Below are positions 3,001 through 9,000 of a DNA stretch of 20,901 bases, piece after piece. Positions within the stretch are counted from its first letter, which is position 1, and every line of letters starts with the position of its first letter. Made by a program: the position numbers. The stretch is from Chlamydiota bacterium. GTDB lineage: Bacteria; Chlamydiota; Chlamydiia; Chlamydiales; SM23-39. The DNA lies in contig JBEHXF010000036.1 in the NCBI GenBank assembly GCA_048498835.1, positions 1 through 20,901 on the forward strand. Direction: 5' to 3'.

Positions 3001-6000
3001 TCGACGATGGTTATTTTTGTTGTTCCGGGAGTGAGTGCTAGCGCTTTCATGAGAACCTTTTTAGGATCTCTTGTATCCCAACTAAAAAAGACTTTTCAAT
3101 AAATTTCTGCCTTGTGGACATAAAAATAATTTGGCTGCTACTGTTTTTAGAAGGTGTTCTGTAGTGAAAGATATTAATCACAGAGTGCACAGAGATGAAA
3201 GAGAGTCACACAGAGAAAAAATTCTCAATTTCTGCTCGGTGAAGCTTCTTTTTCTCTCTGTGAACTCTGTGATTGTATTTCTTCAGAACTACACAAAAAT
3301 TTGTCACAGAACATGCTCTAAGATCTGTAACCAGGGGTAAATAAATGGTTCTATCAACTGATACCACAAAAGTTTGGGCAAAGGTTGTCGCGAAATGTTG
3401 GCAAGATGAGACATTTAAACGACAGGTGATAACAAACCCAAATCGGGCGTTAGAAGAACAGGGATTAAAGATTCCAACAGGCGTTCGATACAAGGTTATT
3501 GAAGAGAAAGGACAAGAGCGCCACACCTATATCGCTTTGCCTAAAAAGCCTCGATCCGCCGATTTGAATCGCCATTTGAAAGAACTGAATGTGGACTCTG
3601 GTTCTTCATTTGGGAAAATCTGGTCCAAAGTGATCGCCAAAAGTTGGCAGGAAGAGGGATTTAGAGCTAGGGTTATCGCTGAACCCGCGAAGGTACTCGC
3701 TGAGGCTGGATATACATTTGATCCAGCGACAAAATTTAAAGTGATTGAAGAAGAGAGCATCGAAGAGCATGCTATTCATCTCTCTTTGCCTGCGAAACCG
3801 CAGAAGAGTGATTTACGAGAAGAAGAATTAAGGCATCTATCGGGAGCCCTTTGTGCATCTTGCGGCGGTTGTGCCTGTTAACTTGATCCGATTTAAGTCT
3901 TGTTATCACGTCGAAGACTTTGTCGATGAAGTGTTTCTTTTTTCCGAGAAGCAGACGCATCGTTTGCAGGGGAAACTATATGGTTTAGTTTCCCCCTTAT
4001 TAAAACAGGCAACGCTTTCGGAACAGGAGATCGTTGATCGATTAGCCGATCAAGCATTGCCTGAAGAGATTCACTATGCTTTACAAAGATTGGAAGCAGG
4101 CGGGTATCTTGAGCGGGTAGAAGAAGATCTCCCCCCTGGTTTTACCTCTTTTTGTCATTTGCTAGGAGTAGAGCCGGCACTTGCCCGAAAACGGCTACAG
4201 GCTTGCCATCTTTCTGTCCTAGGAATTGGCTCTGTAAACCTTCAACCTATTCTTTCCGCTCTTGAAGCTATAGGTCTTACTTTATCTTCAGAAAAAGGCG
4301 ACTTAACTTTGGTGGTAACAGATGATTATAGCCACCCTCAAATAGAAGCGCACCATCAGCAGCTCAAAGATAATCCGTGGATTTTGCTCAAGCCCAAAGG
4401 ATGTGAAATTTGGCTAGGACCTCTTTTTCAACCGGGGCAAGCTGGGTGTTGGGTCTGCCTCGATCATCACATCAAGCGGAATGATTTAGAACGCTCCTAT
4501 GTAAGAAAGAAAGGTGGGGCCCCTTTTTCTACTGCTATCTCCTCTTTTTCTGCGACCGAAGGGTTAGCCGCTCATTTTGCTGCGAGCGAGCTACTTAAAT
4601 GGATTGTGAAACCAGAAGCTTCCCTTCTAAATAAAAACCTCCTTTCTTTTGATGCTCTGCAAACCAAATTCCAAGAGCATCGCTTGCTTCCGCTCAGTAG
4701 CTGTAAACACTGTGGGAAAGAGAGCATGAGATCATTCCATCCTCCGGTTTTCAGCGGAAAGAAAAGGGGAATAAGTGATGGGGGATATCGAAGCCGCTCT
4801 GCGGAACAAACGTTGAAAAGCCTTTCGCCCTACATCAGCCCGATTTTAGGGGTTGTGAGTTCTCTACACGATTCGGCTTTAGACTCTTCTCTTCATGTGT
4901 ATTATGCAGGCAATAATTTTGCCGTGGCCAATTCTTTGGAAGGATTGGAGCCCGACGCTCTCCGCAGTCGCTGTAGCGGAAAAGGTCAGACAGAGGCGCA
5001 GGCTAAGGCGAGTTGTCTTTGCGAAGGGATTGAGCGGTATTCTGGAATCTTTCAGGGAGATGAGCCGAGAATCCGGGGAAGTTACCGAGAACTGAAGGGC
5101 AATGCGATTCAACCGAATGACATACAGCTCTTCAGCTCTCGGCAATTTAAAATCCGCGAAGAGTGGAATAGGGTTCATAAGAGATCTCATCGAGTTCCCA
5201 GGCTTTTTTCTGAATGCGAAGAAATAGAATGGTCGCCCGTCTGGTCTCTCACTGGCAAAGTTGTGAAATATCTTCCCACAGCTTTGTGTTACTATTCTTA
5301 TCCCGATCCCTCGCCACCTTGCTATGCCGATTCCAATGGAAATGCCGCGGGCAATTGTTTAGAAGAGGCGATCTTGCAAGGATTTTATGAGCTTGTCGAG
5401 AGAGATAGCGTAGCCATTTGGTGGTACAATAGAATCTTGAGAAATCGTGTCGATGTTCGAAGTTTTGCCGATCCCTATTTAGATCTGTTACTTGAAGAGT
5501 ATGCGGCGATTGGGAGAGACGTTTGGGTACTGGATATCACGAGCGATTTGCCCATTCCTACTTTCGTCGCACTTTCAAAAAGCGCTAAAGGGGAGATTCT
5601 CTTTGGTTTTGGGGCTCATCTCAATGCTTCGATCGCCCTTTCTCGCGCACTGACTGAAATGAATCAGTTCCTTCCTCTTCTAACAAAATTAAAACTCTCT
5701 GAAAACGATTGGCTTAAAATGGCAACCATAGAAAATCAGCCCTACCTTCGAGGCCATGAGAGGGAGCCAATGAAGGTGAAAGAGGACTATCCCAAGGTTG
5801 ATTGCGACGATCTTTTGAGATGCCAATCACTCGTTGAAGAGCGGGGAATGGAGATGTTGATCCTAGATCAAAGTCGCGATCCGATCGATTTGAAAGTAGT
5901 CAAGGTCATAGTTCCGGGACTCAGACATTTTTGGCCCCGTTTTGCACCCGGTCGCCTCTATGATGTGCCGGTAGCGATGGGATGGCTTAAAAAGCCGCTC

Positions 6001-9000
6001 CAAGAATCTGAACTCAACCCTATACCCATGTTTATTTAGCTGTGCTTTTACAACTCAAACCAAATGCGCCTTTCGAAGCTTTAACCGATCATTGGTTTCA
6101 TAAGCTGATTGAGGTGGGTGAAGATCGGCTCATCTCGTTTTTTTATGGCTTAGAAAAATTAAAGACCTCTGGGTGGATCGATTACACCATTCCAGCTTAT
6201 TTAACGTTCATTCCCTTTTCTCCGTTTGAGAAAAAGCCACTGAACGAGACGAGCGCTTATCGCCTCTCTCGCTTTTGTTATACCCGTTTAGAGGGAGATA
6301 AAATCGTCTTAGAGTCTCCTCTTTTTTCTGGAAGGATTGAACTCATCGGGCCGATGGGAATATCTCTTTATTTCCGTCTTGCAAAACCTTGCTCCCTACT
6401 CGAATTAGTGGCCGAATTTCCAATGGCAAAAAGCTACATGGAATTATTGGTGTGGGGCCAGATGTTGGTGGAAGAAGAGGAGCTTTCTCAATGGGCTTTT
6501 CACGATCTTCTTTTCCACAGCAAGACTCGACTGGAAAGAGCGCCACCCGATTTTATGAAGCTCTATCCTTTTCAACAAGCTCCTCTACCTGTCGTTAAAT
6601 CGATCTCTAATCCGATCGAGATCATCTCTCTATTTAGACCTGATATCGAAGCATTAAAACGGAGTGACGTTTCCTTTACACAAGTTTTAGAGACCAGATC
6701 GTCTCAAAGAAAACAGGGCAAGACTCCTCTCACCATGGAGCAACTGGGAGAGTTTCTGTTTCGGACGGCGCGAATTCAAGCGCTCAAAGTCAATCAGTGT
6801 GAGCTTTCGGAGCGCCCTTATCCAAATGCAGGTGCGCTCTATGAACTGGAAATTTATCCTCTTATTCATAGTTGCGAGGGACTTTCTGCTGGCCTTTATC
6901 ATTACGATCCTCTCAACCATCGTTTGCTAAAACTAAGAGAGGGTGACTGGAGAACAGAGAGTTTGTTGAAACAAGCCCAGCTTTCAACTCAAAGCGACTC
7001 CTTTTCTCAAGTCCTTTTGATCATCGCTGCCCGTTTTCAGCGGGTGAGTTGGAAGTATCCAGTCTATTCCTATTCTCTCACGTTGAAAAATGTGGGCGTC
7101 TTGCTTCAGACGATGTACCTTGTCGCTACAGCAATGGGGCTCGCTCCTTGTGCGATTGGAAGGGGAGATGGTCGTCTGTTTTCTGAGCTAATCGGATCAA
7201 AAGATGGGGAAGAAACGAGTGTGGGAGAATTTATGTTAGGCTCGAGTGGCGAATGAGAAATTTAGGCATTGGCGTTGGATTGAGATCTGCGCATTACCGA
7301 GAAATTTTAGCGGAAAAGCCGCCGGTGGATTGGTTTGAGATCATCAGTGAAGATTACTTGAGTTTAGAGGGACAAAATTTTGATTTTCTTGAGAAAATAT
7401 TAGATCTTTATCCAGTGGTGCAACATGGAGTTTCTCTCCATATCGGGAGCGCTGATCCCCTCGATTTTGACTATTTAAGAAGATTGAAAAAATTAAGCCG
7501 AGTTACCAAAACGCCTTGGATTTCAGATCATCTCTCGTGGGGCAAAGTCGCAGGGGCTCATTACCACGATCTTCTTCCTCTGCCGTTTACAAAAGAGGTT
7601 GTTGCCTACGTCGCTGAGCGAGCGAGGATTGTGCAGGATTTTTTGGAACTTCCCTTTGCTCTTGAAAATGTCTCCTCGTACACCTCCTTTAAAGTGGATG
7701 AAATGGCCGAGTGGGAGTTTTATGGAGCTATTGTGGAGCGGGCAAACATTCATATGATGCTGGATGTCAATAACTTATATGTTTCATCGAAAAATCACGA
7801 CTTTTCCCCACAAGAGTACTATGAAAAGCTACCATTGGATCGAGTGATCCAGATCCATTTAGCGGGTCATAGAGACATGGGACTTTATCTTCTCGATACC
7901 CACGATGCTTTTGTCTCTGACCCTGTTTGGGAACTCTACGGTGAGATTTATCCAAAAACGAAAGGGGTATCGACGCTGTTGGAATGGGATGACCAATTTC
8001 TCAGTTTCGAGCGAACGTGGAAAGAGGCTCTGAAAGCAAAGCGATTTCAACAGCAGGTGGTGCATGAGACCGCCTCCTGAACTTCTCTCATTGCAGAGCC
8101 AGTTTACGAAAGCTCTTTTAAGAGAGGACGAGACGGCGGATCTATGGCTCTGTGGAAGCCCTGGTTTGCCAGCCAAAAAGAGAATGGGGATTTATCGCGA
8201 GAGTTATCAAACGCGAATCATCCAATTTCTCTTGGCTCATTTTCCCCTTGCGTGCCGATTTTTGGGGCGAGAGCGGTTTTGCCAAGAGATTACGCTCCCA
8301 TATTTAAGCGATTGCTATTCTACCGACTGGCGCCTTGAGCAGTTTGCTTTTCATCTCGTTCTTTGGTTTGAAAAACGTGATCCCTTTCTTTTAAGTCTAT
8401 TGCAGGCTGATTTGCGTTGGCTGATGTGTTCGCTTGCAAAGCACGTGGTTTCTCCCATTCCCGATCTTTTTTCTACTCCACTCGCTTTGCAGCCTCACGC
8501 CTCTTTGATCCAGTTAGAGGGAGATCTGTTTCATCTCCGACTGGAAAGCGAGTGGAGGCCGCCTCGCGAGGGGATTTTTCAGTATCTCTTATTTAGGTCG
8601 AAAACGATGGCTGTCGTAGCGGCTCCCATCAGTGAAGTTTTTTATCACCTCCTGAATGAAAAGGGATGTTCTTGCAATGAGGCAATCACAAGATTAGAAG
8701 AGATCTATCCCTCTCTCGACTATGCTCTGCTCTATTATTCCATGGAGCGATTTAAAGACGCTTTTTTAGTGAGCACGAGTAGTGCAGCGATCCCAAAACA
8801 GATCGAGCCTACAATCAAAGAAATTTGATTGGTCAATCCAAGCCACGGAGAGGTGATGACAATCGCAATCAAAAAGCCCAATGCTTGCAGCGATTGCATG
8901 ATTCCCATGACTTCTCCCTGGAGTTCTTTTTTCACGCTATTGGACGCAAAAGCGAGTGCTGTTGAGATAAATAGGGCGTAGAAAAATTCTTGAAAGGGGA

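Follow-up and report, generated by a model that had tools for sequence, protein, structure and literature searches.

In bufferin and captophorin clusters (BufABC, FonABC and HvfABC; PMC11626156, PMC12668002) a BufB-like MNIO, an iron enzyme, is followed by a DUF2063-RRE partner; the usual products of such a pair are copper-binding peptides. The same pair, together with a Cys-rich candidate substrate and the EWDD motif, is found in a five-gene operon of an uncultured chlamydia-like bacterium (genome G000, 97% complete), within the window analysed here, a stretch of 20,901 nt (Table 1). Unlike those clusters the operon has neither a Sec-signal precursor nor DoxX; its only linked precursor is of the NHLP type, and YcaO and SagB are present. 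NHLP azole peptides and proteusin-type TOMMs (MprCDE; PMC12455567), with their LynD/TruD/MusD-like enzymes, share with the operon an NHLP precursor, an RRE-E1-YcaO fusion and a flavin oxidase, but differ from it in that the operon carries a tandem leader, a single precursor and an appended MNIO pair, with no C39 transporter found. The pfl/pos clusters of Pseudomonas (PMC12636437) likewise combine an MNIO and a nitroreductase on an NHLP precursor in a cluster without a protease; there, however, the two enzymes are fused and target Asp and Phe, not Cys, and a YcaO or PME1 partner is not named. In the operon MNIO and SagB are separate ORFs (stop codon at 7254-7256), and the island genes gave no match to the HEXXH-family enzyme of Pfl-type clusters. 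Streptomyces provides a case, the std cluster (PMC13174530), in which a single peptide is modified first by a YcaO and then by an MNIO with its partner or in the reverse order; there the YcaO works with TfuA in thioamidation rather than azole formation, the MNIO hydroxylates homocitrulline, and the precursor is not referred to as NHLP. The YcaO of the operon is fused to E1 and not stand-alone as in the Std-type YcaO-TfuA/MNIO cluster.

Action of an MNIO on an NHLP precursor (Pfl) and of YcaO plus MNIO (Std) is already published, while no azole-forming YcaO/SagB with a captophorin-type MNIO pair was found in the literature searched. If such a combination operates here, two Cys-cyclising chemistries (YcaO thiazole and MNIO 5-thiooxazole) naturally compete for one 10-residue peptide, giving a direct handle on substrate choice by the PME1 partner and on RiPP module swapping. 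If the MNIO pair does not act on the NHLP core, the locus amounts to a rearrangement in a single uncultured chlamydia.

Gene content and setting of the operon

The five same-strand genes listed in a first-pass annotation as one operon were recovered as intact ORFs, its family assignments were reproduced (Table 1), and the reported 4-bp overlap corresponds to an ATGA shared by the SagB stop and the MNIO start. MNIO and its partner overlap by 17 bp. Three genes are chained in this way, which was counted in favour of recruitment of the pair to the operon. Overlap alone is weak proof, as in 4 of 78 chlamydial loci an MNIO pair follows directly on a housekeeping gene unrelated to it. Each of the five genes occurs once in the genome.

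Table 1. Positions of the operon genes and of the surrounding island in the window
Feature	Position	Strand	Evidence and remarks
NHLP precursor, 178 aa	3345..3881	+	TIGR03793 in two stretches, 102.5 bits, above cut-off
Fused RRE/E1-like/YcaO cyclodehydratase	3853..6039	+	PF02624, TIGR03882, TIGR03604
SagB/ThcOx flavin dehydrogenase	6042..7256	+	TIGR03605, PF22767
BufB-like MNIO	7253..8080	+	PF05114, 326 bits; EWDD motif
DUF2063-RRE (PME1) partner	8064..8828	+	PF09836
MFS transporter, DHA1-type	8735..9952	-	MFS_1; convergent, within island, 94-bp overlap with partner 3' end
Accessory island	3051..10732		7.7 kb, between gdh (1944-3050) and lptD (10733-12808)

The flanks of the island are about 0.85 kb apart in G004, a genome of the same genus, and the genes adjoining lptD differ in three other same-genus genomes. 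Codon scores of the five genes were mildly atypical (19th-35th percentile, against the 80th-99th for six flanking genes), which was also counted for recruitment. The MFS transporter, a possible exporter, had a top match of 32% among five same-genus genomes. Promoter and terminator scans gave matches at chance level.

The two leader domains of the precursor form an internal repeat with 40% identity. Tandem leaders also occur in G008, G275 and G045 and were dropped as a special feature. Cleavage at a Gly-Ala site would release a predicted 10-residue core, LCASCGGCAC (nt 3849-3878). The YcaO gene probably starts at an in-frame TTG at 3883. Its product is closest among solved structures to MusD, LynD and TruD (E ~1e-169 to 1e-161), and its matches to TIGR03604 and TIGR03882 were above cut-offs, as was that of SagB to TIGR03605. 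SagB is the shortest of 21 chlamydial copies on account of an N-terminal deletion; in the alignment the Lys-Tyr pair is retained and 7 of 76 conserved columns are altered, inside the range of its relatives.

The active site of the MNIO is intact. Residues H58, H93, E138, D171, H202, D215, H217, E244 and D246, which include the catalytic Asp and the putative metal ligands as assigned from the alignment, are invariant in 52 of 52 sequences. Among 138 near-invariant columns the enzyme differs at only 4. The enzyme scored 298.8 bits against NF050167, below the cut-off of 310, as do native chlamydial copies (301-303). Its EWDD motif is the same as in Cys-Lys bufferin enzymes, and retention of the bufferin-type Asp247 was counted against recruitment. 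The partner is strongly diverged, its nearest relative among 1.84 billion representatives being 36% identical, yet is predicted to fold: a model made from a 41-row alignment reached a pLDDT of 88.8 and matched 3DEE and TglI in Foldseek.

Distribution and origin of the MNIO pair

No MNIO or DUF2063 was present in 15 of 15 other chlamydial fused-YcaO loci, in agreement with the earlier claim that the pair is absent from other such loci, nor in three further chlamydial SagB loci with short flanks. The same held in metagenomes for 73 of 73 YcaO loci, 40 of which had 2 kb or more of downstream sequence, in an HMM scan run with a positive control. In a GTDB scan with the MNIO, no YcaO or SagB was listed among the 79 loci kept of at least 595. 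The one NHLP listed (L271) belongs to a locus with its own bufferin precursor and DoxX. In G275 a further NHLP and an ordinary bufferin locus are 7 kb apart with housekeeping genes in between, and the case was left uncounted. The rough probability of one NHLP-MNIO neighbour by chance, given 14 other genomes with both, is 0.08-0.16, which was counted against recruitment. No conservation of the arrangement is seen, since it comes from one assembly and, in a set of ~15 billion proteins, the precursor, the MNIO and the partner each form a singleton; this too weighs against recruitment. Word-based protein searches with the partner and precursor returned their own copies alone, and metagenome contigs searched with the partner yielded no relative.

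The assertion that a precursor always precedes the pair did not hold: of 78 chlamydial MNIO loci with enough sequence upstream, a precursor was recognised in 72 (70 with the HMM and 2 on visual inspection) and was missing from 6. NF050166 and single-precursor queries overlooked precursors already known and lack the sensitivity needed to prove absence. Upstream of the MNIO in the operon no Sec-signal Cys-rich precursor was found. The sole precursor-like match in G000 is g00820, which lies on contig C15 and, as annotated, matches no Pfam or NCBIfam family. It is intact with conserved Cys motifs, and occupies the ancestral bufferin site of the family, from which the MNIO pair is missing. The first-pass account of a pair torn from this precursor and welded onto the thiazole operon is borne out to that extent, but such loss recurs (G000, G008, G002 and G030 all retain the precursor alone) and the trees favour import. 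In the best trees the pair groups apart from native pairs. Sisterhood with the same-genus ancestral-site pair was rejected on the concatenated alignment (AU p 0.001) but not on MNIO alone (p 0.065), and membership in the native family clade was not rejected (p 0.08); placement outside the native pairs is decisive in only one of four AU tests. On these values (AU p 0.001-0.08) we lean towards import. That the pair arrived separately, together with the thiazole operon or onto it, is no less likely than the torn history, and under recruitment g00820 would be the orphan of an independent, common deletion.

Candidate substrates of the MNIO pair

The choice posed earlier, a hybrid peptide or action in trans, still stands, with circumstantial support for the former. 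We give a probability of about 0.45 to recruitment of a bufferin/captophorin-type MNIO-PME1 pair to the NHLP thiazole operon within an accessory RiPP island. With four Cys in its final 14 residues the precursor ranks first of 64 chlamydial NHLPs, and its core resembles the SC(G/S)GxxGC motif of native bufferin-like precursors. In published systems BufBC can do without the signal peptide (PMC11626156), FonBC is core-driven, favours a small residue after Cys and modifies an NVCGG variant once (PMC12668002), and the NHLP precursor PflA is modified by an MNIO domain (PMC12636437). Against this, the tandem-leader core of G008, a genome without an MNIO match, contains CGGFC, and Cys runs end many metagenome YcaO-locus cores without MNIO; Cys-rich cores are normal YcaO substrates.

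Under recruitment, YcaO would bind the NHLP leader and cyclodehydrate some core Cys/Ser, SagB would oxidise the azolines to azoles, and the MNIO pair would convert other core Cys, most plausibly the Cys-Gly of SCGG, into 5-thiooxazole. As both chemistries use up the amide before Cys, they would divide the four Cys among themselves, and a small peptide with both thiazole and thiooxazole rings would result, probably one that binds metal. The C39 peptidase domain PF03412 was not found in G000 but was found in three of three relatives searched, so the peptide may keep its leader and remain cytoplasmic; alternatively it may be cut by some other protease and leave via the MFS transporter. PF01523 (TldD/E) was found in none of four genomes searched (G000 and relatives), and TfuA from G042 gave no tblastn match in G000.

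It is somewhat unlikely that the pair merely borrows the operon promoter and matures g00820 in trans to a periplasmic bufferin-like copper binder, YcaO and SagB alone making the thiazole peptide. The intact g00820, the EWDD motif, the unrejected native clade membership, precursor-less pairs behind unrelated genes and the reported frequency of precursors unlinked to MNIO genes (PMC12452194) agree with this reading. Retention of g00820 says little, however, as no MNIO match was obtained in 12 of the 34 family genomes that have a precursor-like match, and the rejected sisterhood on the concatenated alignment speaks against it. So does the partner, whose divergence exceeds the MNIO-based expectation more than in any other of 71 pairs (z -2.55), a point counted for recruitment, whereas four other precursor-less pairs are normal (ranks 26, 48, 61 and 63). 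Partners in G098 and G050 rank 2 and 4 despite ordinary precursors, and the divergence fits relaxed selection as well as it fits retargeting.

It appears distinctly improbable that the pair currently has no substrate and is carried along as a passenger, under relaxed selection, in a hot spot for insertions. The branches are long (0.59-0.65 for the MNIO and 3.05 for the partner, whose branch exceeds all others among 25), the partner is altered at 5 of 24 near-invariant columns, part of the SagB N-terminal domain is lost and no dedicated peptidase or exporter was found in the genome. Yet such deep divergence has left no frameshift or stop, few altered MNIO columns, all putative metal ligands and a partner that models well. 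Mis-assembly or a chimera at the SagB-MNIO junction is highly improbable: the arrangement is known from one contig and from no sister genome, but the junction lies within overlapping intact ORFs, 3324-10800 shares no repeat with the rest of the genome, the two flanks of the island adjoin each other in G004 and the genome has no second MNIO site.

Recruitment gains a parallel in G042, where a second precursor-less MNIO pair lies in an inserted island with an NHLP, a putative prenyltransferase and a radical SAM enzyme, an arrangement present in more than one assembly. The G042 YcaO is sister to that of the operon (SH-aLRT 96), which was likewise counted for recruitment. It is a doubtful extension that chlamydial captophorin-type pairs repeatedly (G000, G042) left Sec-exported precursors and were retargeted to NHLPs, here yielding a leader-retained cytoplasmic thiazole/5-thiooxazole hybrid metallophore on which two enzymes share four Cys. 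Elsewhere the G042 genome encodes two proteins with signal peptides, one of them containing 5 Cys, as possible trans substrates for its pair, and the operon and G042 pairs have no special derived residues in common; both points count against recruitment. Common ancestry of these two pairs was not rejected (AU p values of 0.40 and 0.31). In G042 the partner is also diverged (rank 9 of 71) and the MNIO has Thr in place of the specificity Asp present in 47 of 52 sequences, both of which were counted for recruitment.

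Operon, insertion site and rarity

Five ORFs on one strand of the window matched, along the operon, the NHLP leader (two stretches), E1-fused YcaO, SagB/ThcOx, MNIO and DUF2063. The overlap is 4 bp between SagB and MNIO and 17 bp between MNIO and its DUF2063 partner, and all five genes are single-copy in this genome (G000, 97% complete), in agreement with the five-gene operon and SagB/MNIO overlap of the first-pass annotation. The 7.7 kb between gdh and lptD is taken up by the operon, an MFS gene that runs convergently to it and an ORF of 138 aa. As this gap is about 0.85 kb in the same-genus G004, and other genes adjoin lptD in G001, G002 and G003, the site is variable and the block is an insertion. 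Codon scores of the five operon genes fell in the 19th–35th percentile versus the 80th–99th for gdh, GMC, MFS, lptD and the HEAT gene, and this common range weakly suggests a shared history.

YcaO was matched in 37 of 400 genomes of the order, near full length in 16 of these. The 15 other full chlamydial YcaO loci examined all carried SagB and nine carried NHLP; MNIO/DUF2063 was found in none of them, as had been claimed previously, nor in 73 metagenome YcaO loci (at least 2 kb downstream in 40). YcaO/SagB was likewise absent from the best 79 of at least 595 GTDB MNIO loci, and in the protein collection the window's precursor, its MNIO and the partner each occur as a singleton. The arrangement is real and rare.

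Elsewhere, five YcaO-SagB loci (L075–L079) have no NHLP nearby and carry a conserved, Cys-poor ORF of 107–129 aa directly upstream of YcaO, and in L359 (G433:C72) one SagB lies between two convergent YcaO genes.

Coordinates of the operon and of features in related genomes (G, genomes; L, fetched loci; C, contigs)
Feature	Location	Genome	Content
Operon	window 3345-8828 (+)	G000	NHLP precursor, E1-fused YcaO, SagB, MNIO, DUF2063
MNIO	window 7253-8080 (+)	G000	
DUF2063 partner	window 8064-8828 (+)	G000	PME1
Dispersed palindromic repeat	window 3142-3323, also near 18781-18907	G000	at island's left edge; copies on about 20 contigs
Second repeated intergenic element	window about 150-430 and 12670-13250	G000	near-identical spurious ORF translations
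ORF overlapping SagB end, about 290-316 aa	L072:11115-12065	G008	in the place of the window's MNIO; no clear family
ORF overlapping SagB end, about 290-316 aa	L357:512-1378	G448	as in G008
Inserted block	L063:6622-11290 (G042:C6)	G042	radical SAM, 207-aa ORF, NHLP (CSSSC), putative prenyltransferase, MNIO, DUF2063
Large NHLP locus	L081:2943-14303 (G042:C3)	G042	about nine precursors, TfuA-YcaO pair, ThiF-like protein, SagB N-terminal fragment, 957-aa enzyme, probably LanM-like (judged by appearance)
Tandem units	L172:7080-10091	G235	NHLP + putative prenyltransferase, twice
Bufferin and NHLP genes	L271:3508-7185		bufferin precursor (without relatives' six-Cys block), MNIO, DUF2063, DoxX, then NHLP ending in two Cys and GRDP-like ORF
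Distant MNIO type	L366:3283-4405	G448	28% identity; after 70-aa peptide with CxxC end and no signal peptide

Origin of the MNIO pair

The ancestral order in the family is speD, precursor-MNIO-DUF2063, EamA, pgeF and rfb, whole in G003, G010 and G020 and partial, truncated where the contig or region stops, in G005, G006, G027 and G296. In G000 this site holds the bufferin-like precursor g00820 without the pair, and the same loss is seen in G008, G002 and G030. Among 103 family genomes, 34 had a precursor-like match (some weak) and 28 an MNIO; since 12 of the 34 lacked any MNIO match (seven of the 12 at least 90% complete) and the loss recurs at the ancestral site, an orphan precursor is ordinary in the family. 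PMC12452194 also reports that precursors are often not linked to an MNIO gene. The pair was said always to follow such a precursor; this holds for 72 of the 78 chlamydial MNIO loci with upstream room (six more without it were left out), the exceptions being the window, G042 and four loci behind housekeeping genes.

In a tree of MNIO plus partner (33 rows from 52 pairs) the family's native pairs formed an 11-row clade (96/97) with the window outside, nearest to G098 of another family (88/95). AU tests gave p 0.001 for joining the window to G003, 0.075 to G003 and G001, 0.08 to the 11 native rows, a group named after the tree was seen, and, with MNIO alone, 0.065 to G003. Import of the pair is thus favoured, though no more firmly, since the window's branch is long. 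The proposal that the pair was torn from g00820 therefore stands only in that g00820 occupies the ancestral site without it; such orphaning is ordinary and the trees favour import. An affinity outside the family appears clearer for the YcaO, which in a quick tree was sister to that of G042 (SH-aLRT 96) and excluded from its own family's clade.

Recruitment to the NHLP peptide and its alternatives

By family knowledge (PMC12455567), YcaO and SagB would form thiazoles/oxazoles on the core, the predicted end of the NHLP precursor. We tentatively prefer, at roughly 45%, that the MNIO pair was recruited to this thiazole peptide; a hybrid pathway in this operon is unproven and concerns one assembly. 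The core has four Cys in its last 14 residues versus at most two in 63 other chlamydial NHLPs, and its SCGG resembles a motif of native precursors, but the argument is weakened by the CGGFC core of G008, which has no MNIO match. BufBC does not require the signal peptide (PMC11626156). Alterations ahead of the core are tolerated by FonBC, which favours small residues following Cys and accepted an NVCGG variant (PMC12668002). As Gly or Ala follows three of the four core Cys, recruitment would need little new recognition. Judged from the mechanism in PMC12668002, YcaO and MNIO chemistries would exclude each other on one Cys. Neither a C39 peptidase nor TldD was found in G000.

The partner shows possible signs of retargeting: modelled as a DUF2063-RRE protein, it had no relative above 36% identity among 1.84 billion representatives and ranked first of 71 pairs for divergence beyond that of its MNIO, in a set biased by many best matches to the window's MNIO; the four housekeeping-adjacent pairs ranked 26, 48, 61 and 63, and G098 and G050 ranked 2 and 4 despite ordinary precursors. 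In the MNIO, 4 of 138 near-invariant columns are changed, but every putative metal ligand is kept, as is the catalytic Asp. Action of the pair on g00820 in trans is a lesser possibility, and a decaying passenger seems unlikely given the conserved MNIO. On sequence evidence a mis-assembled junction is highly improbable, as no repeat from elsewhere in G000 occurs inside the operon.

MNIO action on an NHLP precursor (PflD, PMC12636437) and YcaO-TfuA with MNIO on one peptide (Std, PMC13174530) are published, and chlamydial proteusin clusters are mentioned in passing (PMC13229535). No report of an azole-forming YcaO/SagB with a PME1-type MNIO was found in the searchable literature, which holds few subscription papers and whose supplementary neighbourhood tables may list such clusters; the PMC12668002 supplement had no YcaO/NHLP term match. 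The operon is a variation on known RiPP chemistry, and a hybrid pathway would be testable.

A second candidate cluster and other MNIO loci

The only MNIO pair of G042 (99% complete) lies in an inserted block whose two flanking genes are neighbours in G000. Without a bufferin precursor, this block is a candidate second MNIO-NHLP cluster. Its radical SAM best matched, weakly, the prokaryotic viperin family; the prenyltransferase is so named, as a lead, for its similarity in features, and homologues of it follow NHLPs in G235. Two congeners have normal bufferin loci. The G042 MNIO has Thr where 47 of 52 carry Asp, a position linked to Cys-Lys preference in PMC12668002. Against this case stand the chance expectation of NHLP-MNIO proximity (about 0.08–0.16 over 14 genomes) and the absence of shared derived residues joining the window's and G042's pairs; possible trans substrates elsewhere in G042 count against retargeting there.

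No Pfam family matches the putative prenyltransferase of the G235 units, and its likeness to Trp_DMAT clusters is one of features only. One chlamydial genome, G052, encodes five divergent MNIO paralogues, one with an internal TGA.
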